A stretch of DNA of 61,626 nucleotides, the filler included, from Thelocarpon superellum (Eukaryota): the NCBI GenBank assembly GCA_026025795.1. It is 10 parts of 10 records of this genome, joined end to end, with 100 filler letters (N's around TTAATTAATTAA, not from the genome) between each part and the next. Parts side by side here need not be neighbours in the genome. Positions count along the whole stretch, not along the records: positions 25,054 to 31,176 come from JAPEUG010000691.1; 9 more parts are not named here. The stretch is one strand, 5' to 3'. The notes under the pieces are model-generated. The model was not told the DNA's origin. It searched no databases and worked only from the letters and a program-made list of their open reading frames with translations. The position numbers were made by a program, and so were the translations under genes. Below are positions 20,582 to 34,512 of this stretch, in pieces (the first letter of the stretch is position 1; every line of letters begins with the position of its first letter).

Positions 20582-23500
20582 ATGGCGTCAAGCGTCAACC
20601 GACCGACCAACGTCAAGCTGAGAGATGCAGACATCAACCAAAAGCTGCAGCTCTATGGCATCTTCAGCGGTTAGCTCCCTTGCAACGACCCTCTCGTGTG
20701 GCATCATCACCGCTGGGCTCACTGATGACTGACACTCTTCACCTACGCAGGATTCTCCAACGGCAAAGTACCTTCGGTGAGCAGAAATAGGTCTCGGCTC
20801 TTCAGATCGTGACACTGAACGATTGCAGAACAAACAAATTGACGTCGCTCTCAACAGCCTGCTTGCCTCATCGCCGTTGGCGAGTCCGTCAAACCAGCTC
20901 TCTGCAGAGGGCAAGCACCTCATCGCCGACGCCCGCGATGTGATCGAGCAGGCCAAGCAGCTCGTCCTCTCCAAGAACGAGGGCAACTTGTTGCAAGATT
21001 TCATTTGGCACTCATCCCAAATTAGCGGCGGGAGTGCTCAGCTGCCAAACGCGCCCGTCGACAAGCAGACAGCCCAGCAGCACGGCAACCAAGCCCTCGA
21101 CGGTCTGCGCACGCTGGGGACGCTGCTCATTTCGAACGGGCAGTTCCGCAAGCTCTGTAAGTTGACGCTCGCTCCGACGAGGGTTGGGGTCGTTTGGCTG
21201 ATGTTTCTATAGTGAAGGATTCTACTATCCTGCTCCGAGACATGGCTGGCGACGCTGCCCAGACGGCCGCCTCCAAGGTTAATCCGTCTCAGGATGCCCT
21301 AAACCAGATTGATCGCCCGGCCGATGACAACACCTGGCACGATGTGCCGACCAAGGACGATCTCATGAACCAGGCCAAGGGCACCTTCAACAAACAGAAG
21401 CCTGTCGGCCGTGGTGATCTGAAGGATGCCGTTGGTGATGCCTCTGCGACCGCCCATCCGTCGGGCACGCGTGATCCGACCGACGTCGCTGCGACCGCGG
21501 CCCAAGATCAAACGCAAGGCACCAACTCCGGTGTTGACGCGTCGGCCGGTGCCTCGGCCGCTGCCAGCACGTTGGTCGACCGGGCTCGGGCCAACGTACC
21601 CGATGAGACGCAAGACCGGGCCAAGGACACGGCGCGCACGGCCCAGAACAAGTCCAAGGACTACCTGTCCAAGAAGATGCCGCAGGAGCGTCGGGAACAG
21701 GCTATCTGGCGCTTGAAGAAAATGGTCGTGGAGATCCAAGGTCACCAAGACTGTATGCAATCACCTGCCTCCGTGCTCGTGGCCATGCTGACGATGGAAC
21801 AGACCAAGAAGCCATCGAGACGCTCTTGAGCCTGGCGGAGCAATACCGTGGTCATGCGACCAACGTGGCCCAGCAATCCACCGGGACGGTGAAAGGTGCA
21901 CATGATGATGATCATTTGCAGGCTGCTGAGGCTGACTTGCGCGTACGTTCAACCTAGGCTTCGTCGCCGAGAATCAAGTTATGCTGACCGACTTGAAGAC
22001 TCTACTGGAACGCTTCGCCAATTCCACTTCATCGGATGACTTGTTTGACTCCATCAACGCCATCTACCGTGATGCCGAGCGTGACCCCGAGCTCAAGAAA
22101 TGGTTCACCGACCTGGACCGTTTTGTGCGCAAGTGCCTCAAGACCGAGGGCTTCATCATGCAAGACGACGCCACGGTGGAGTACAACAAGCTGTACGACC
22201 ACGGCAACTTTCTCCTCCGTGATCGCTATCGCAACCACACCAATCGCGTTCTCGATGAGGTCAAGTTCATCGGGGACCAATTCGACGCCGATCCGCAGAA
22301 CCAAGCCTTTTCCCAGTCGCTGCAGAAGCTCTTCAACGACCTGGGCAACGACCAGAACGGCCGTCCCACGTTCAAGCCGCACCTAGTCAAGGACCTGAGC
22401 AACGTCATCCTGCCGCAGCTCTTCGAGAGCATTCGCTATGTGCCTATTCCTCGCATTGAGTATTCCGACCCGCAGCTGGATGCTATTGTCGAGAACCTCG
22501 TCATTGAAGGCGACAACCTGATGCCCAACGTCTTTGAGTTTGGTAGCGACAACTACGTCCGCTTCGGCCGCAAGCAGATCGCCAGCAAGGCGAGCAACAA
22601 GACAATGTTGTCCGTGTCGGGCGTGCAGATGGATATTCGAGGTACGTTCATCACGAGGGTTGCTTTTCATCACGAGGGTTGTTTGAAAAATGACACTGAT
22701 GATGTGTAGATGTCAGCTACTACGTCAAAAAGAAGCAGGGCTTCCCCTCCGTCAGCGATACGGGTGTTGCCGACATCTTCATGGGCGGTGAGGGTTTCAG
22801 CTTCAAGGCGAAGATGGCCACGGCCGAGGCGAAAGACAAGCAACATTTCTTCAAGATGGAGTCGGTGGTGGTGGACGTCAAGCACCTCAACATCAAGCTG
22901 AAGCAGTCCAAGCACAAGCTGCTCTTCAATTTGTTCAAGCCTCTACTTTTCCGCGTCGTGCGACCGGCGATCCAGAAGGTGTTGGAGAAGCAGATCAAGG
23001 ATGCTATCACACAGGCTGACGCGTATGCGTACGCCATCCATCAAGAGGCCCAGCGTGCTGCCAACGAAGTGGCCTCTGATCCGGACAATGCGCCCAACGT
23101 GTACAACCGCTACTACACGGCAGCGCAGCAACGCTTCATGCAGGGCAAGAAGAAGTCGCAGGACGTGGCCGCCGATAAGAAGGTGAATGTGGCCATCACG
23201 CAGAAGGATAGCATCTTCCCGGATATCAAGCTCCCCGGTGGCATCTCGACCAAGGCCACAGAGTACAAGGAGCTTGCGGCCCAGGGCGAGCGCTGGGAGT
23301 CGCCCGTGTTCAGTCTCGGATCGGCGTCGGAGTCGACCAATATTCCCAAGGTCTCGTCCATTCAACGCCGCCAGCACCAGACGGCGTCGAGCCAGATCCG
23401 CGGTACGAACAACCTGGAGTCGACCAGCCATGGGTTCAGCAACCAGGTCGACCAATCATTCGGTAACCAGCAAGACCTCTCCTTGGGCTCGAACGCGCCC

Positions 23501-23653
23501 AACGGGACGACGACGAACGGCGTCAATAAGCCAGCCGGGTATACGAACGGTGACAGTACGACGGAATTCAACGAGAAGACGCCGGCGGCCAATGGCGGTA
23601 CGACGCTTGGTGCAAATAATCCCGTCCTCTCGGGCACCAGTACGTACCGTTGA
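20582..23653 (+). CDS. Conserved fungal DUF5923/DUF4449 protein (SPAC32A11.02c-like); 7 exons including a 26-nt micro-exon 20751-20776
   Basis: MASSVNRPTNVKLRDADINQKLQLYGIFS|GFSNGKVPS|NKQIDVALNS, LRTLGTLLISNGQFRKL, IWRLKKMVVEIQGH, YVPIPRIEYSD, VENLVIEGDNLMPN, GGISTKATEY. Six GT-AG introns keep the frame. Confidence 0.85.
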
Positions 23654-24257: not shown

Positions 24258-24953
24258 TTAAGAAGAATAAGCGACTTCGACCCCCACAGAGGTAAACGGC
24301 TGATCTCTGCGACCGAGATGGAACGTACTTCCAAGCGTGAAGAGGAGTTCTTTGATGCGTCCTTCCCATAGGAGTCCGATCTGGCCCGTTGCGTCCAATC
24401 TGGCTTTTAGCACGCCTTGAATATCGTCGCGGTGTCTTCCTCCCCTTTTCCCTCCTTTCTCTTTCTCTTCGCTCCTTCCTTCTTCTCCCGTTTCCGTTTC
24501 TTCGGTCAACGGGAAAGGAGGAGTGTGGGGGGTGGTAGTAGGAAAAGATGACGAGAATATAGAGGATGAGGTCGACGCTGACGATGACAACGAAGAGGAA
24601 GACGACGATGAACCAGCCTCCCGCCATCGCCAAAGCTCACAACCAAACGAAACACCACTCTCATAACTATACGCATTGAAATCGAACCTAGAAGCGAGCG
24701 CCAGGTCCGGCGAAGCCTGGACGGCGTACGTGCAGCTCAGATTCCCCATCAGTGGGTTGGCGGTCAATGTCATGGTCAGGGGAAAGCCGGCGTAGTCTGG
24801 TAGTGTGGTCAGACGTAACCCTGTGCTCAGCCCGATGGTGGAGTTTAGGAGGCCGTAGTACAGTTCGCCTCCTGCGCTTAGACGCGTTGCGTGTTGTTTG
24901 GACGTGGGCGGTGTTGGAAACGAGGGGCTGGAAGGGGATGTGAGAGTGGAGGT
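24258..24953 (-). CDS. MDM10: Mitochondrial distribution and morphology protein 10 (ERMES/SAM beta-barrel), 3' part
   Basis: GELYYGLLN..GLSTGLR, TMTLTANPLMGNLSCTY, SRFDFNAYSYES, GCELWR, VLKARLD, GLLWEGRIKELL and terminal GVEVAYSS*. Confidence 0.92.
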   Translation of the reverse strand, partial: TSTLTSPSSPSFPTPPTSKQHATRLSAGGELYYGLLNSTIGLSTGLRLTTLPDYAGFPLTMTLTANPLMGNLSCTYAVQASPDLALASRFDFNAYSYESGVSFGCELWRWREAGSSSSSSSLSSSASTSSSIFSSSFPTTTPHTPPFPLTEETETGEEGRSEEKEKGGKRGGRHRDDIQGVLKARLDATGQIGLLWEGRIKELLFTLGSTFHLGRRDQPFTSVGVEVAYSS

Positions 24954-25053
24954 NNNNNNNNNNNNNNNNNNNNNNNNNNNNNNNNNNNNNNNNNNNNTTA
25001 ATTAATTAANNNNNNNNNNNNNNNNNNNNNNNNNNNNNNNNNNNNNNNNNNNN
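24954..25053. other. Artificial contig linker
   Basis: 44 N + TTAATTAATTAA + 44 N. Confidence 0.99.
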
Positions 25054-25675
25054 CTTGTGACGATAGCGGTGATCACGAAGACCGTTTATCAGCTCGAGAG
25101 CCCTGCATTGCACAGCGCGGAGGCGATCGGACTCAAGTATCCTTCGGGGTCCTTGGTCGCGAAATTTTTTGACACGCACACACCTTTTCGTTGATCCTGC
25201 CGCCTTGGGCGTCAGATTGAAGAAGAGTCACGGTCAAACCGAACTGCTCTATCCCCATTGTCACAGGATTCCGTTGTAGCGGCGCCGGCTTGAGTAGACA
25301 CATGTACATGCTGGCCACCATGAACAGAGAAGCACCGGCCAAGTGTCGTGGCGGTAATAGAATTTGAGAATAAAATAAACATTTTAATCTTGTCACCGAA
25401 TATCTGCCTGGTTTGACGGGCCTTGAAATATATGTACAGGCTACCGTCATCGTCACAAAGTTCAAAGATGCTATCGCATATCTTGATTTGTGTTCAAGTA
25501 TTCGAAGCTAGGGAAGGTTGTAGATCAACGTGGAGCCTAGCAATACCATTCTAAATACCTTAGGTGGCCGCGGAGACTCATGGTGGCTGATAAATCCAAC
25601 CTCGGCTGCGACGGCGTCACCGTGAGAGTCCCGTCACCACCAGAGGGAGGCCCATCCACTATCTGACCGCGCTGA

Positions 25676-25682
25676 TATAAAG
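25676..25682 (+). promoter_or_regulatory. TATA box of the glutaredoxin gene
   Basis: TATAAAA 130 bp upstream of the ATG at 25806, followed by a pyrimidine-rich leader. Confidence 0.6.
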
Positions 25683-25805
25683 TCCCCCATCTGCTCCAAT
25701 CCACCCTACATCCGGTTCATCGGCTCCATCTCATCCCATATATCGTTGCCCACCATTTCGGTCCTCCGCCGCTTCCTCTTCTCGTGCGCGAGTAATCCCA
25801 AAGCC

Positions 25806-26245
25806 ATGTCTGCCGCAAAGACCAAAGTCCAGGACATTATCAACAATAATGCAGTCGGTAAGTCCAACGTCGTCTCGCGAATCTCCACTCTGAGTTAAGA
25901 CTCTGAGTTAAGACTAATGTCTCGCACAATAGCCGTCTTCAGCAAGTCTTACTGCGGGTTTTCGCGGGCCAGCAAGGCTCTCTTGACGGAGCTGGGTGCC
26001 AAGTACTACGCCATCGAGCTTGATCAAGTCGGTACGTTTTGCTCATGATCTCCTTAAGATCAAGTGCGCTGACTATGATGGGCGCAGATGACGGCTCTGC
26101 CATTCAAGACGCCCTCAAGGACATTACGGGACAAACGTCAGTTCCTAACATCTTCATTCAGCAACAGCACATTGGCGGCAACTCGGACCTGCAGGCCAGG
26201 AAGGGTGACCTTCCGACGCTGCTGAAGGACGCTGGAGCCGTATGA
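25806..26245 (+). CDS. Glutaredoxin, class I scaffold with monothiol CGFS active site; 3 exons (25806-25857, 25933-26031, 26088-26245)
   Basis: Spliced: MSAAKTKVQDIINNNAVAVFSKSYCGFSRASKALLTELGAKYYAIELDQVDDGSAIQDALKDITGQTSVPNIFIQQQHIGGNSDLQARKGDLPTLLKDAGAV*. Canonical GTAAGT..TAG and GTACGT..CAG introns. Confidence 0.95.
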
Positions 26246-28721
26246 TGATCTCTACTAGTAGTGGAGTCGTACACCTTGTTGATATGTATGAGAGCAAAGG
26301 AAACGCACTGCAATAGGTGGATGCGAGTCGGCCACAATACCAAATAAACCTATCGATCTTGGCCCGCGCGTGCTATTCGCGTTCCTGGATACATCAAGCT
26401 CAGCCCATAGGTACCTTCCGCGAGAGCAAGGAGCCAATTCCGGATCGTAAATGCGCATCCCAGGCAGGTACGAAGTACGTCCACATGCTCGGCCCTTAGC
26501 GGTTGGATGATGTCAAGTGTTTTCTGAGGGTTATGCAAGCGATGAGACGGGAACAACTGCGAAATTTGTATCCTCTCCGATCATGGAGAAGTCATGAGAA
26601 CAGAACCAGATGCGTTGTCTATCCGAGGATCCACCGATCATTTGTGCCAGAAGGCAGGGGTAGGAGCCAAATGCATAAGCTGCGTGGTAGCCTCGGCATC
26701 ACCGCTACATCGCCTCGTTCGGGGAGTAGGTACTCCGGGGTAGGTTCCCCGGACTCGCTCCGGTACCTGTCCTCGTGGTTACTTTGGAGGGGCATGACAC
26801 CAGTTTCGTCAACAGACCACGTGATATTCTACTAACCCTACCGGCTTATGTTTCAATTTAGAAGATCATGGGAGACGGTCTGTCTTCGAGGTCACGACCG
26901 GCCATTTCGATCGCCAGGGACCATTACGAGAGACACTCCGTCGTCATGGACGGGGCACGCCTGACCATGGCGGCGCCAACAGGAGCCGGCTTATGCCAAC
27001 GTGGGGCAGGGTTGACGATAGGTAACCGGCTATCGACCGTCTATCGACCGCGCCTTGCTAAGGGTGGGCACTAAGAGACCGAGGGGGGCCGCGAGGTGGA
27101 ATCGTCCCAAGGGACCACTACGCACAATCGATTGCACGATGCCGCCCCATGACCTAGCGAGCTGTCGACAACGCATCTCCACGAATCAGATGGATCGGGG
27201 GGGTCGATACAACGCCGGTCAGGTTGCGGGTTGGTGCAGCACGTCTGTGCGAGGCTTCTTCATCCCCGAGGTTGATTCGCATATGCACGCTGGGCCCAGG
27301 TGCGGTTCGCGCTGTGGTGCTTGGGGCTGCAGGCTCCTAACGAATCATCGATCCCGCGACCGGACTAGCCCGACAGATGATCACGCCGAACCATGGCGGG
27401 CCAGTGGGAGCCACGGCTAGTTGCGCTGGCAAGACGAGCCATGTGCCCGAATGTGTGCCACAACTTTACCGTGGGGCAAGGGCCGCGCTGCAAGGGATGA
27501 GGGGTTGCCGACCAGTGGCGACGGCGCATGCTGACCAGGCTCTTGCAGCTCGGGCGTACTAGTACAGTACAGGGACCTCGCTGATTGCTGGAGAAGCCTT
27601 CGGCAAAGCCCCCATCCCAAGCCTTTGGCTCATGACCACTCAGGCGAAGGCATGAACGGCGCACGCTGCTGCAACACCATGATCTTGGTGTCCACGCCAG
27701 CGAGAACATGCACCAATACCGCCGCTCTCATCAGCTTTCACCAGCAGCGTATCCGGGGAGGGTGGAAGCGGGGCTGAAAAGGACGACGGGCGCTGTCGCC
27801 AGGTTCCGAAAGTTGTCGGAGAAGAGCAGGCAGCCACTTTTGGTCGCACCGACGGGGCGTAAAGAAGGCTCGACCTGTACGGGGGAGTACGAGGAGGAGT
27901 ACAGGTACGAGCAGGCAGATATTGAAACGAGGCGTAGGCGTGGGGAGACTTGACACACGGTACCGTAGAGGACGGCACCCCGCTTGCCGTGTCATCTGTC
28001 TCAGCTTATTGTGCGAAGTACCTGCAATGTTCACTGCGGCACCTAGCGGGGACCCGCGACCGTAGCCTGTAGCCGTAGCCGTAGCCTGCAGCCCGCAGCC
28101 CGCAGCTCGCCGTAGCGACGGTGGTCTTCGCGTTGCGCTCGTCGCTCGGCACCACCAACAAAGTCGCCTGGTGTGCAGCCGTAGGGCCACACCGCCTCAC
28201 TCCGGGGTGGGCATACGGTAGGAAACGAAGGGTGCTGACCGCCCGAAAGGGGTCTTACATGTAGCCCCGCTTCGTCGATTCCTTCCATATAGACACCGCT
28301 TCGTAAGTAACGCTCCGCATTCTCCATCTACGCGTCCGAGACTCTTCACAGTTCGACCTGATCTCATGCTCCGTGCCGAGGAAGTGTGATGCGTCGTCCT
28401 GGGCGCCGCGTTCTCGCCACTTGACCTCTACTCGCCCGGGCCAAGGTGCGTAGGCGCGCGACCGAGGATCAGTGGCGTTGTGATTCTCCCGTCCGGCCGG
28501 GCTACTCAATCCGGTTACCGCTTTGCCTTCCGTCATCACCTCCACCACTTCACCCCCAAGCCCCTTCACCCCGACCCCCACCTCCGAGCTGGAGACGGAG
28601 AGGTTCGTGTGCGCGTCCATACTCTACGGCCAAGCTTCGAGTGAACGACTGCTTTCCTCTTCGTCGCCAACTCGTCGACATGGAGCCGGGTCGCTGGTGA
28701 ACGCGCGCTGGAGCAGTTAGC

Positions 28722-30593
28722 ATGAACTCGCCACTCCCTCCCGACCCCTTTGAGGTCTTGGGTGTCCCTCGGGACGCCTCGCCAGCTGCCATCAAGTCGG
28801 CCTATCGAAAACTCATCCTTCAGACTCACCCCGACAAGATCCAAGATGAGTCGCTCCGAGCGCAGAAGCAGGATGAGTTTCAGCAGGTCCAGCAAGCCTA
28901 CGAAACCCTCAGCGATGACACGAAGCGACAACAGTACGAAGATCAAGTCAAACTGGCCAAACTGAGGAAGGCTGCCGCCGCCGACCCGTCTCGCGCCACC
29001 GGCTTCCGATTCGAAGTACGCACCGCTGGCTTCGACGTCCGCACCGCCGCCCCTCGGGAGTATGTGTACGAGCAGCGCAAGGCCAGTCGCTCCTTCGAAG
29101 ACGACATCGGATACTTTGCGGATCGATCCTCATCGAGGAAAAACGATCCCCATGGCTCGTCGCGTCGACCATCGCGCAGTTACGATGACCGAAAAGCGTC
29201 GCACACGTTCGAAGAGGAACGCGACCGTATCCGGATCGATCATGACCGTCAACGCGCCCACGATCGTGGTTATCTGTCGGAGCGACGGAAGAACCGCGAC
29301 AGAGATCGTCGACGAGAGTTTGACGAGAAATATGCACGCGCTTCCTTCGACGATGACGAGGAACTGGACCGACATCGCCACAAGATCGAGATGGACGAGA
29401 CGGCCGGTCGGCACCGACGCGAGGCGCGTCTGAGTGACGACTCTCTTCGTCGGGACTCGACGCGACGACGACACGATGAGGAGTTCTACGAGTCCGAACG
29501 TAAACTGTCAAACGCCCGCGATTACATGGAGCGATCGACTCGTGCCGTGACCGATGAGCCGGTCAGTCGGCCTGCGGCACCGCATCGGTCATCCACGACG
29601 CATTATCTTCGACCAGTCGCCCCAGCGCCACCGTCTCCCATCGAGGACACTGTTCGAAGATCTCGAGCACGAAAGTCGGGAGACCGTGAACGGTCACGCG
29701 GCGGAGAGCGACATCGCAGCTCACGGAAGGACTCATCCCGCGGACCGATTGGCATTGTCGACCCCCCAACTCACGATTCAAAGTCACGTGATGCGCCGAG
29801 CATGCCGCACTCAACGTCTTCCCCAGCAGCGCTCCGGGCTGCCATGCACCCCACACCCCGACGCGCTGAGACGATGGATTTCGCACGCGAGCAGCGCCCC
29901 GAGATACCACCCCTCCCCCGATCTTCGACCATGCCTGTCGGCGAACCGTCGTCCACTCGAAGGCGGGAGACAGCTACTCCTGGCTCGTCCAAGTTGAAGC
30001 CCGAACCATTTGATTCCGGCTATTCCAGTCCCGGCACACCAGACGCTGGTCCAGGAAGACGACACGAGTCCGAATACATCGTCGTCGAGGAGGCCGAACC
30101 GTATCCCTCTCGGTCCAGTCGACGTCATGAGGCATACGTTGAAGCAGATTCTGAGACCGAATCCGAATATGACATCGATCTTCGCGACATCTCTCCTCGA
30201 CGTCGGGCGTCACCGTCCACCCGTCCGACTCTCTATCGCGAGATTCCCACCAGCGGAAGGACCCCACCGATGCGAAGCGCATCGTACGCGTACGTCACGG
30301 ATCCGCGCGGACCTACTCTTGTCCGCGCGGACACCGGATCAACATCCCGCGGGTCACCCTCGTTTCTTCGTACCGGATCTGGCTTTGCCTCTCGCGGAGG
30401 GTCCTATCAATCAGGGGAGTCGAGTCATTCGCGGAAGGCAGGGTACCCAGACATGCAATTCTCGCCACGGGAGGTGCAGTTTTCACCGAAGATCAAGCGA
30501 GAGGATATTGTTTTCAGTCATGGCCATGGGCGAAGGGGTAGTGATGATTATCATCATAGCTACAGAGTTGATAGGGGTGTTAGGGTGGAGTAG
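28722..30593 (+). CDS. J-domain (DnaJ class C) protein with long Arg/Ser/Asp-rich disordered C-terminus
   Basis: DPFEVLGV..IKSAYRKLILQTHPDK..FQQVQQAYETLSD..RQQY with an intact HPD motif. Single 623-aa ORF. Confidence 0.92.
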   Translation: MNSPLPPDPFEVLGVPRDASPAAIKSAYRKLILQTHPDKIQDESLRAQKQDEFQQVQQAYETLSDDTKRQQYEDQVKLAKLRKAAAADPSRATGFRFEVRTAGFDVRTAAPREYVYEQRKASRSFEDDIGYFADRSSSRKNDPHGSSRRPSRSYDDRKASHTFEEERDRIRIDHDRQRAHDRGYLSERRKNRDRDRRREFDEKYARASFDDDEELDRHRHKIEMDETAGRHRREARLSDDSLRRDSTRRRHDEEFYESERKLSNARDYMERSTRAVTDEPVSRPAAPHRSSTTHYLRPVAPAPPSPIEDTVRRSRARKSGDRERSRGGERHRSSRKDSSRGPIGIVDPPTHDSKSRDAPSMPHSTSSPAALRAAMHPTPRRAETMDFAREQRPEIPPLPRSSTMPVGEPSSTRRRETATPGSSKLKPEPFDSGYSSPGTPDAGPGRRHESEYIVVEEAEPYPSRSSRRHEAYVEADSETESEYDIDLRDISPRRRASPSTRPTLYREIPTSGRTPPMRSASYAYVTDPRGPTLVRADTGSTSRGSPSFLRTGSGFASRGGSYQSGESSHSRKAGYPDMQFSPREVQFSPKIKREDIVFSHGHGRRGSDDYHHSYRVDRGVRVE

Positions 30594-31276: not shown

Positions 31277-31722
31277 AGTAGACACCTGGTGGCCAACATG
31301 CCGACTTGATCCGCTAGACGAGCTGTATCAAACCCGTCATCAAGCAATATTGAAGTCGTGGTGACACTCCCGGTCGTCTCTCTGGCAGGGGGCGAGTCAT
31401 CCGCTTAACGCTGGCGCCGTCACTCTTTCGCCGTCTCGGTCCTTTTCCACGTCTGCGTTCACGAACCACCCTCCCCCTTCTGCGCTATCTCTTCCCCCGG
31501 ACCCGGCAGCGAGCCCGTGCCCGTCTCTTTGACTTCCGGCACGAAACCCTCCCCCTCTATCGGCAGCAAGTCCAGTCACGCCTATACCGCTTCCTGATCG
31601 ATCGGCAGACGCAGAGACGACAGCGGCGCGCGGACGCCAAGGGCTGGACCCCCCTCTGGCGCCATCGACGCCACCGACTCAGCAGCCGCCTTGCAGAGGA
31701 TGCGGGCCCAGCGCGGAGGAAG

Positions 31723-34512
31723 ATGACGCCCGTCGGAACTTCGGAGGCAGGGGTAGGCGTCGGGCCCATGGCTCGGACCGAGTCGAGCATCAGTCTAGTA
31801 CCTGCCGACGGAAGAGATCGAGGGGCGCGCCGGCGCAAATTGGCTGGATATCTCAAGGCCGCCAACGAGCTCCGTCAGACATATCAGCAGTCCTACACCG
31901 CTCGTGGCCAGAGAAATGAGTCCGATGAGATCGACCCGGGCATTCCGGGTGCCTTCCCGGACGTATCTATCGTCCGCAGTGGCGACGAAGAGATGGTCCT
32001 CTTCCCCAGCTATGCACGGCGGCACGTCAAGAAGCCAAAGCCCGCCGAGATGGCCCCACGCGCGGAACCTCGCATTGGCCCGACCGGACGCCCACTCTCG
32101 ACCGCCGACGAGGCGGACTTCTGGCACGCTGAGTGGCAACGGCACGAAGACGACAAGGCCGTGGTCGATGTCGATGTCCGTGGCTGGATCTACGCGCCCC
32201 ATCGCGGGCCCATGTCGCGAAAGAATCGGCTCTTGATCGGCTTGGCGCGTCAGTTGAGCGGCATCCCCGCCCCAGCCAACACGCCACAAGCCGCGGGCGA
32301 CACCGGCCAGGCGAAAAGCTCGCGCCACGAGCAGCAGATGGTCGAGCGCGAGGCCGAATCCATCGTGCACCGGGGCCAGGACGAGGCGGAGGCCGCTGAA
32401 CGCGGCGAGTACAGCGAGCGGCCGGCGCTTGACCTCGACCAGATCAGCCTTCACAGTCAGAGCGACCGGCACAGTCGAGGTAGCAGCCCCGACACTGCGG
32501 CGAGGGGCCTGCGGCTTGGGCCCGCCAGGACACCACGCTCACGGAGCAAGAGCCCCTTGGCCTCTGATCAAGAGGACGCGCCCGAGGCGGGTGGCGTGGA
32601 CAAAGACAAACGCAAGTGGTGGAATCAGCCGGCCGAGATGAGCACCGAGGAGCTGGCTGTGGCCAACGCACATCTGATGTCGCGGTTGGGGCCCTTCTTG
32701 ACCGATCCCATCGTCAGCACCCCCGTCACCATCTTTTTCTACAACGCCGAGACGTCACAGTCTCGGTCGATCGTCACCAACGAAGCCGGGCACTTCACCA
32801 TCCGCGTCGCCTTGGACTTTGTGCCGACCGACGTGCGCGTCCTGGCCTCGGACACGCTCTCGGCCACGCAGGAAATTCGCATTACGGAAGCGCAAGGGGT
32901 CAGCATCATCAGCGACATTGACGACACCATCAAACATTCGGCCATCGGGAGCGGGGCCAAGGAGATCTTCCGGAACACCTTCATCCGCGATCTGCACGAT
33001 CTCACGATCGAAGGTGTGCGGGAGTGGTATGGTCGCATGTCCGAGCTGGGCGTTAAGTTCCATTACGTCTCCAACGCGCCCTGGCAGCTGTATCCCGTCC
33101 TAGTCAGCTACTTCGCCCTGGCTGGGCTGCCTCCGGGCTCCTTTCACCTGAAGCAATACAGCGGCATGCTCCAGGGTATCTTTGAGCCCGTGGCCGAGCG
33201 TAAGAAGAGCACCTTGGTGCGGATCATGCACGACTTTCCCGATCGAAAATTCATCCTGGTCGGAGACAGTGGGGAGGCCGATCTGGAGGTCTACACCGAC
33301 ATCGTCATGGCCAATCCGCGACGGGTCCTCGCCGTCTATATTCGCGATATCACCACCACCACGCCGCACCAATTCTTTGACTCGGCCATGGGCTCGCTCA
33401 ATGGCGACCGGAAGCAGGCTGAGCCCATCGTGGGCGAGAAGGGTCCGTCGGAGGAGCGGCCGGCGCTGCCGCCGAGGCCAAGCAGCGTGCCGTCGCAGCC
33501 GGGCAAGACGGAACCTCCCATGGGTCAACTGATTGACTTTGGCGACGATGCGCCAACGGCGAACCTCTCGCCGGAGCAGGGAGCCGGCTCGGACCTCTCC
33601 CGGTCACGGCCAAGCCAGCGGTCGCCCGGACCTGGGCGGCCGGCCAAGCCACCAAGGTTACGGAGCGAAGGGTCCGGCGGAGACGCCGACCACCATCCGG
33701 CCAACGATGATGTGCCAGACCTGAAGCCAGCAAAGAAAGGACCGCCACCCTTGCCACAGAAACCTCGGCGATATTCGGGCAACAAGATCGCCCCACCCAA
33801 CGTCTCTGGGCATGGCTCGACCGCTCCTCCTAACGCACCACCCAAGCCCCTGGACCAGGGTCCGCCGACGGCAGCACAAATGTCCCTTGCGCGACAGCAG
33901 AATTATCTTCCGTCCATGCGGCAAAAGATGACCCTTGCCTACAACAAACTGCCCTCCGCCGCGACGATTGTACAAACCCTCGCCGGTGAGATACAGGGCC
34001 CTCCGCCACCCCCGCGACCGAGCGAGTCCGGCAAAGACCGCGTCGCACCCAGTCCGCACACTTGGCAGAGCGCCACCAACACTGCGCCTCCACCACCAAC
34101 ACCCCGTCGAGGCCTCACTTCCTACCCAGCCGCAGCAGCGCAGTACGCCTCATCACGCATCAACACCGCGTGGAACAACGCGGCGGTCAGCTCGTCGGAG
34201 AATTCGTCCGTCTCCTCGCCCTCGTTGCAAGCCCAAGTCGGCGCGGGCTCCACCAACGCAGGCTCGACCTTATCGAAGAAGGAAGAGCTGTGGAAGCGGC
34301 GGTGGGCGCGCGCCAAGGACGTGCTCGAGGGCAAAGGCGTGCAGCTGCGGAGCTGGCACGTCGGCCAGGACGTCATGCATCATGCCGAGCTGCTGGTCGA
34401 GCAGGCCCTGAAGAAGGATCGCCACGTCACGGAGAGTCGCGGAGAATTTGGCGCCGGTAAGCGTCGTCCGGACTCTCCGCCGCGGCCGTCGACTTCGTCC
34501 TCGTCGTCATGA
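31723..34512 (+). CDS. APP1: Phosphatidate phosphatase App1 (actin patch protein 1)
   Basis: GVSIISDIDDTIK (DxDxT HAD motif), FHYVSNAPWQLY, LPPGSFHLKQYSG, FILVGDSGEADLEVY and Pro-rich C-terminal half. Start may be 31723 or 31768. Confidence 0.92.
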   Translation: MTPVGTSEAGVGVGPMARTESSISLVPADGRDRGARRRKLAGYLKAANELRQTYQQSYTARGQRNESDEIDPGIPGAFPDVSIVRSGDEEMVLFPSYARRHVKKPKPAEMAPRAEPRIGPTGRPLSTADEADFWHAEWQRHEDDKAVVDVDVRGWIYAPHRGPMSRKNRLLIGLARQLSGIPAPANTPQAAGDTGQAKSSRHEQQMVEREAESIVHRGQDEAEAAERGEYSERPALDLDQISLHSQSDRHSRGSSPDTAARGLRLGPARTPRSRSKSPLASDQEDAPEAGGVDKDKRKWWNQPAEMSTEELAVANAHLMSRLGPFLTDPIVSTPVTIFFYNAETSQSRSIVTNEAGHFTIRVALDFVPTDVRVLASDTLSATQEIRITEAQGVSIISDIDDTIKHSAIGSGAKEIFRNTFIRDLHDLTIEGVREWYGRMSELGVKFHYVSNAPWQLYPVLVSYFALAGLPPGSFHLKQYSGMLQGIFEPVAERKKSTLVRIMHDFPDRKFILVGDSGEADLEVYTDIVMANPRRVLAVYIRDITTTTPHQFFDSAMGSLNGDRKQAEPIVGEKGPSEERPALPPRPSSVPSQPGKTEPPMGQLIDFGDDAPTANLSPEQGAGSDLSRSRPSQRSPGPGRPAKPPRLRSEGSGGDADHHPANDDVPDLKPAKKGPPPLPQKPRRYSGNKIAPPNVSGHGSTAPPNAPPKPLDQGPPTAAQMSLARQQNYLPSMRQKMTLAYNKLPSAATIVQTLAGEIQGPPPPPRPSESGKDRVAPSPHTWQSATNTAPPPPTPRRGLTSYPAAAAQYASSRINTAWNNAAVSSSENSSVSSPSLQAQVGAGSTNAGSTLSKKEELWKRRWARAKDVLEGKGVQLRSWHVGQDVMHHAELLVEQALKKDRHVTESRGEFGAGKRRPDSPPRPSTSSSSS

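Follow-up and report, generated by a model that had tools for sequence, protein, structure and literature searches.

The window analysed here, a stretch of 61,626 nucleotides of Thelocarpon superellum DNA, harbours a gene whose product is a class I glutaredoxin (Grx) everywhere except in its active-site motif, which reads CGFS; on the basis of profiles, sequence ranking and fold, it is not filed under class II. The gene is an intact, probably single-copy Grx1 orthologue, cytosolic by prediction, of a lichen-forming ascomycete. The reading that we favour, with moderate confidence, is that CPYC was rewritten to CGFS on the own lineage of this orthologue, that constraint on the remainder of the class I scaffold continued as normal, and that the protein has a monothiol and cluster-binding mechanism.

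The gene is located at 25806-26245 on the plus strand. It was spliced by hand and consists of three exons encoding a protein of 102 aa, with the following features:

25806-25857, plus strand: exon 1, with the ATG at 25806-25808, encoding MSAAKTKVQDIINNNAV and the first base of codon 18
25858-25932, plus strand: intron 1, GTAAGT...AG, phase 1, with a branch-point-like site ACTAAT
25933-26031, plus strand: exon 2, encoding beta1, the active site and helix 2 (AVFSKSY-CGFS-RASK...ELDQV), matched by Pfam PF00462 (E 2.1e-07)
25953-25964, plus strand: active-site codons TGC GGG TTT TCG, for C25, G26, F27 and S28
26032-26087, plus strand: intron 2, GTACGT...AG, phase 1, with a branch-point-like site CTGAC
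26088-26245, plus strand: exon 3, matched by Pfam PF00462, with the stop codon TGA at 26243-26245

The Pfam Glutaredoxin family (PF00462) was matched by the translations of both exon 2 and exon 3, the latter encoding helix 3 (IQDAL), the cis-Pro loop SVP, the glutathione-binding motif GGNSD and the C-terminal helices. The spliced product was identical over 102 aa to the database protein P0003, which is named by one source as a hypothetical protein of the Thelocarpon superellum metagenome-assembled genome. The active site is K22-S-Y-C25-G-F-S28, and C25 is the sole Cys of the protein; the coordinates, the CGFS reading and the single Cys given in the original prediction were exact. Both intron positions coincide with read-through points in the mis-modelled relative P0191, and the position of intron 1 also in P0227. 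No in-frame Met was found upstream of the MSAAK start within the stop-to-stop frame 25626-25898, so a cytosolic form alone is predicted, and no organellar isoform. An N-terminal extension and a thioredoxin (Trx) domain were absent from the gene model and the upstream frame. Intron 1 contains an exact 13-nt tandem duplication at 25887-25912 (ACTCTGAGTTAAG twice), directly upstream of ACTAAT, and a TATA-like element (GATATAAAG) is located at 25672-25683, about 125 bases 5' of the ATG.

The family HMM, run over the six-frame ORFs of the window, matched the three exons of this gene only and detected no other Grx domain. The GC content around the gene was unremarkable (0.43-0.63). Other genes located in the window were the following, an ordinary fungal housekeeping set:

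21936-23653: HAM1-like gene, in two ORF pieces with a probable intron between them
24258-25001, minus strand: MDM10
28701-30593: DnaJ-domain protein
31354-34512: APP1-type phosphatidate phosphatase

The motif was compared with public sequencing data. In run X1, a Logan contig of 986 nt with a word depth of about 150 corresponded to positions 25781-26400 with 0 differences and 0 gaps; X1 is probably the source data set of the window itself, so this match checks the assembler and not the sample. No second contig at least 85% alike over exon 2 was present in X1, and the other pieces from this run, with depths of 2-10, were confined to exon 1; thus, no near-identical copy with another motif was visible. 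Runs X2 and X3, the only other public runs with matches, from another study and labelled as moss metagenome, did not cover exon 2 but were identical at 26042-26286 (exon 3 and the 3' flank). Their contigs also matched 25600-25687, with 0-2 differences over both stretches and depths of 2-3. These matches indicate that the same or a very close organism was present in the moss-metagenome material. RNA runs matching the gene were not found among the public runs listed. At the active-site codons, TGC CCN TAY TGC was the reading in 15 of 19 related metagenome loci, and from this state the window departs by five or more base changes inside a stretch of 8 bases (25956-25963). The argument that a single sequencing error cannot explain CGFS was therefore well founded, and CPYC, which was to be looked for in the reads, did not appear in the contig of X1, the probable source of the window.

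Concerning the scaffold, the protein reached 88.9 bits with NCBIfam TIGR02180 (GRX_euk), above the cutoff of 87.25, and 31.6 bits with TIGR00365 (Grx4-family monothiol), which fails the cutoff of 117.1. The CPYC protein P0136 of Thelocarpon impressellum scored 101.2 and 24.2 bits, respectively. In a phmmer search against the PDB, class I entries were the best matches (E about 7e-24 to 1e-14), headed by buckwheat Grx 5kqa (7.3e-24), poplar GrxC1 (1.5e-20) and yeast Grx2 (1.1e-19), whereas class II entries were far weaker, with 6.6e-06 for yeast Grx5 (3gx8) and 4.2e-04 for human Grx5 (2wul). The AlphaFold model, calculated with a 107-sequence alignment, had a pLDDT of 96.7 and a pTM of 0.88. All of the 50 Foldseek matches listed for this model were CxxC/S-type Grxs or Grx domains, including poplar GrxC1 in its holo form (2e7p, TMq 0.92), the dimeric holo form of human Grx2 (2ht9, 0.91), monothiol GrxS12 3fz9 (0.93), holo GrxC5 3rhc and, as another monothiol class I entry, 5j3r.

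Four protein areas separate the Grx classes according to PMC7138851, the motif being area (i), and the helix-3 Gln and the WP motif belonging to areas (ii) and (iii). Of these four, area (i) alone is class II-like in the window protein. CGFS fits the pattern C-x-x-S and departs from the CPYC consensus. K22, invariant in 162 of 162 orthologues, lies three residues before C25 and forms the short loop; only S and Y stand between both residues, and the five-residue insertion of class II is absent. The WP motif is likewise absent, the region reading GQTSVP in a protein without any Trp. The helix-3 Gln, Q57, is present as in 160 of 162 orthologues, and position 67, which is usually basic, is Thr, as it is in 43 of 162. 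The class I scaffold proposed in the original prediction is consequently borne out by profile scores, PDB sequence ranking and fold search in agreement; the short K-S-Y-C loop without a WP motif was read directly in the sequence, and the protein did not group with class II; such a grouping had been named as contrary to the proposal.

The closest matches were fungal proteins of 102 aa named Grx1 or glutaredoxin. Identity to the fungal CPYC relatives was 74-84%, the highest value (84%) corresponding to P0006, with which identity outside residues 26-28 rose to 86.9%. In a 70-row tree the window protein was placed inside the fungal group (33 rows, SH-aLRT 93), with an end branch of 0.18 against a median of 0.24. 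Orthology to fungal Grx1, which had been proposed from the sequence, was thus upheld by both the 84% identity to a CPYC protein and the tree position. Of the 162 full-length orthologues, 160 have Pro at position 26 and 161 have Cys at position 28; at position 27, 155 have Tyr and six have Phe. The window protein breaks only two of the columns conserved in at least 98% of the 162 orthologues, namely with G26 and S28. Over the other 99 columns it shows 16 differences from the consensus, the median of the set being 17 (rank 54 of 162), and its nearest neighbour differs at 13 positions (median 10, 90th percentile 17). No signs of gene decay were seen in the conserved columns, the consensus distance or the branch length. 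Since the nearest sampled relatives are only 76-84% identical, the change to CGFS is not necessarily a recent one and may have proceeded in steps; possible intermediates (CRFS, CAYS, CSFS and CGYS) occur in other proteins.

To determine how frequent the motif is among relatives, two homologue searches were considered, one seeded with exon 3, so that the active site had no influence (best 120 of 199), and one with residues 11-50 of P0003 (best 120 of 310), a seed that favours proteins sharing motif words. The first contained CPYC in 114 proteins, CPFC in two, CPHC in one, CGFS in one (the query) and two mis-modelled N-termini; the second yielded no further CGFS among its best 120 of 310. In the union of 205 retrieved proteins, CPYC was found in 193 (192 and the mis-spliced P0104), CPFC in seven, CPHC in one, CSYC in one (P0174) and CGFS in the query, and two lacked the N-terminal active-site region. 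None of the other 204 relatives (best 120 of 199 plus best 120 of 310) carried CGFS, and P0136 of Thelocarpon impressellum carries CPYC. The possibility that CGFS is common in fungal class I Grxs, which would have spoken against the original prediction, found no case among the fungal Grx1 relatives retrieved. Full-text searches of the main articles of openly accessible literature found no previous description of a class I or short-loop Grx with CGFS; the nearest published statement concerns bacterial CPYC-class Grxs with CGFC (PMC2679010).

Searched exhaustively with HMMER, 1.84 billion cluster representatives yielded 3935 matches, of which the best 150 were listed, 149 of them new. In these 149 proteins, 174 short-loop sites were counted within the best 150 of 3935 matches: CPYC 72, CPFC 46, CPYS 9, CPFS 5, CSYC 3, CGFS 2 (P0290 and P0303), CGYS 2, CGYC 2, CGFC 1, and one each of CSFS, CSYS, CRFS and CAYS; 21 of the 149 showed no site by the motif pattern. 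P0290 (TIGR02180 88.9 bits, TIGR00365 44.5) and P0303 (72.8 and 32.1) both have transit-peptide-like N-termini and are class I by these scores. Among the 119 nearest relatives of P0290, which include diatom and haptophyte names, 61 carry CPFC, 56 CPYC and none CGFS. The organisms of P0290 and P0303, judged solely by their nearest named relatives, would be diatoms and haptophytes. A further case was found on the ENA metagenome contig L019 (coverage 1.4), where a class I protein of Grx6/7-like type, membrane-anchored and carrying FSKSYCGFS, is encoded at positions 905-1487; the gene is GC-rich and eukaryotic, with one intron, and GRX_euk was the best match of both exon pieces.

Other variant motifs were also observed. 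The AT-rich marine contig L017 encodes at 1498-1611 a class I Grx with CGFC, and L009 reads CPYA near 652 (YSKSYCPYAGATK), without the second Cys. Within the fungal Grx1 type, the active-site Pro is missing in P0227 (CSYS), P0256 (CSFS) and P0174 (CSYC, named Tothia fuscella), indicating that loss of Pro recurs in fungal Grx1 and that the second Cys was also lost in two of these proteins. Six class I proteins have Gly at motif position 2 (P0290, P0303, P0332, P0374, P0381 and P0448, with CGFS, CGYS, CGFC or CGYC), several of them with transit-peptide-like N-termini and with diatoms and haptophytes as nearest named relatives. They share one unresolved tree group of 18 rows and may form an organellar subfamily of Fe-S-binding class I Grxs.

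Each of the four short-loop CGFS proteins stands alone among relatives with CP[YF]C, and a clade conserving the motif was not observed. Each case being a singleton, the pattern fits short-lived tolerated variants as well as adaptation. When the motif columns were dropped, the free tree required three changes for the three CGFS rows; constraining these rows to one clade cost a delta lnL of 31.3 and was not rejected by the AU test (p 0.156; 101 columns, long branches). An independent origin therefore rests on group support and on identity levels, the window protein being 46% identical to P0290, 60% identical to P0303 over a local stretch of 70 residues, and 84% identical to a fungal CPYC protein. 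The natural hybrid described in the original prediction stands as far as CGFS in a class I short-loop scaffold is concerned; it is not unique, as P0290, P0303 and L019 occur outside the fungi. Tentatively, these proteins might reflect a wider pattern, in which class I Grxs would repeatedly, and probably independently, reach CGFS without the class II loop, the natural hybrids being active monothiol oxidoreductases that hold a stable [2Fe-2S] cluster and intermediates between the classes. A bolder version of this proposal is that micro-conversion could have brought in the 8-base patch as a copy from a class II Grx gene of the same genome; a second copy of the 17-mer around the motif was not found in the window at up to three mismatches.

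With respect to function, analogy with published engineered mutants leads us to expect a monothiol (de)glutathionylating oxidoreductase that would hold a stable GSH-bridged [2Fe-2S] cluster, and not an Fe-S transferase. As C25 and K22 are retained, together with aromatic F27, the Gln of helix 3, the SVP loop and GGNSD, the protein would carry out the monothiol reaction with glutathionylated substrates and GSSG, and the absence of C28 would leave it without the dithiol mechanism on non-glutathionylated protein disulfides. Gly in place of Pro26 would permit GSH-bridged ligation of [2Fe-2S] as a class I-type holo-dimer, like that of GrxC1 or Grx2. Protein-protein contact in holo-Grx dimers is almost nil. 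The cluster would be relatively stable, suited to a sensor or storage form (redox or iron) and not to a Grx5-type transferase, and the protein's GSH-dependent reductive half-reaction is possibly slower than in the CPYC orthologues.

These expectations are drawn from published mutants. According to PMC7138851, glutathionylated substrates do not require the second Cys, ScGrx7 Y110F has about wild-type activity in the GSSCys assay, and Fe-S binding is blocked by the active-site Pro, the elongated loop being an off-switch. The same paper describes the active-site Pro as important for activity in HsGrx5 gain-of-function mutants, so that Gly26 may cost activity. Replacement of Pro by Gly (GrxC1) or Ser (Grx2) is given as enough for ligation of [2Fe-2S] by two active-site Cys and two GSH (PMC7503856). 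In PMC7351949, the five-residue extension is stated for all CGFS-type Grxs, the loop is considered the main determinant of transferase function, and Fe-S-binding CxxC/S Grxs are reported not to rescue yeast grx5 mutants. The engineered 'Grx5-loop' described there, with CGFS and a short loop, showed roGFP2 oxidation at 285% of Grx2, reduction at 1.7% and HED activity at 0.5%; its cluster was more stable (k 9.4e-06 vs 4.1e-05 s-1), and it did not rescue the loss of Grx5 in zebrafish (PMC7351949). As the scaffold of 'Grx5-loop' is of class II, these kinetics may not transfer to the window protein.

Three other explanations were weighed. It is scarcely credible that CGFS is an artefact arising from an error of sequencing or assembly, from a chimera or from an uncommon variant that the assembler fixed. 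The source is indeed a metagenome-assembled genome in which exon 2 is covered by one data set, and contigs hide minor variants; nevertheless, the contig of a second assembler is identical over 25781-26400 at word depth 150, no contig at least 85% alike covers exon 2 with another sequence, and at least five base differences in 8 bases do not correspond to a single error. In addition, for a chimera with a class II gene, long words would have to be shared on both sides of the 8-base patch. Very improbable as well is a shift of the protein to a class II function, that of an Fe-S transferase or iron sensor of the Grx5 or Grx3/4 type. The exact CGFS motif and the single Cys would be in accordance with such a role, which is unlikely because the protein has neither the loop and WP motif nor the profile match and architecture of class II: there is no five-residue insertion, N-terminal extension or Trx domain, and TIGR00365 gives 31.6 bits against a cutoff of 117.1. 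Furthermore, the short-loop CGFS mutant failed in the rescue of Grx5 loss (PMC7351949).

The explanation that deserves most attention, rather unlikely in our opinion, is that of a tolerated hypomorph, in which one complex mutation or a series of mutations damaged the dithiol site, thioredoxins and other Grxs compensate, and CGFS is incidental and has no Fe-S role. Every short-loop CGFS protein being a singleton among CP[YF]C relatives, with no conserved clade seen, is in its favour, as is the variety of motifs found on class I scaffolds (174 occurrences in the best 150 of 3935 matches); as these scaffolds tolerate many motifs, CGFS combines residues each of which is tolerated by itself. Moreover, a monothiol Grx can replace yeast cytosolic Trx and dithiol Grx, as reported under the title 'One cysteine is enough' (PMC7286987). 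On the other hand, the remaining conserved columns are all intact, the branch is not accelerated, and at least five base changes are packed into three highly conserved codons. This concentration at the active site suggests a changed selective regime there and not a general relaxation. Published mutants also predict cluster binding from the change of Pro to Gly alone (PMC7503856), which is contrary to the lack of an Fe-S role. The reading of a constrained Grx1 orthologue with a monothiol and cluster-binding mechanism is therefore the one we retain.

Two studies of 2020 argued from engineered chimeras that the loop before the active-site Cys, and not CGFS, sets oxidoreductase versus Fe-S transferase function (PMC7138851 and PMC7351949). 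A class I protein that naturally carries CGFS without the loop extension constitutes a natural test of this loop-switch model, for which the CPYC orthologues, 76-84% identical, are matched controls, and it is a rare natural counterpart of the hybrid proteins built to study both classes. If the wider proposal of natural hybrids were true, these would be intermediates between the two classes, and the statement that the loop is the switch would become testable in native proteins. Classification of Grxs by the motif alone would misfile this gene. The value of the finding is moderate, since it concerns one small gene in one metagenome-assembled genome, with an inferred function and at least three analogous singletons elsewhere.

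Among known systems, the fungal cytosolic dithiol Grx1 of Pezizomycotina (102 aa, CPYC) resembles the window protein in length, N-terminus and intron positions, and its invariant columns are kept except 26 and 28; it has CPYC, whereas the window protein has CGFS and lacks the second Cys and the Pro. Poplar and Arabidopsis GrxC1 (CGYC), human Grx2 (CSYC) and buckwheat 5kqa (YCGYC) share with it the short loop and the replacement of Pro by a small residue. GrxC1, Grx2 and 5kqa are among the best sequence and fold matches, and the same cluster-binding mode is predicted, but they keep Tyr and the second Cys, while the window protein has Phe and Ser and is strictly monothiol. Yeast Grx6 and Grx7 (CSYS/CPYS) and poplar GrxS12 (WCSYS) have the class I fold and Ser for the second Cys, as in the window protein; they belong to other paralogous lineages (secretory or plastid) and retain Tyr, with Pro or Ser at position 2. 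Class II Grx5 and Grx3/4 have in common with it CGFS, the single active-site Cys, the Lys, a TVP-like loop and the GG-x-D motif, and differ in the five-residue loop insertion and the WP motif, neither of which is found in the window protein. Finally, the engineered human 'Grx5-loop' (Trnka et al. 2020; PMC7351949) combines, like the window protein, CGFS with a short K-to-C loop; its scaffold is of class II, with the WP motif and the class II helix 3, and was engineered, whereas that of the window protein is of class I and natural.
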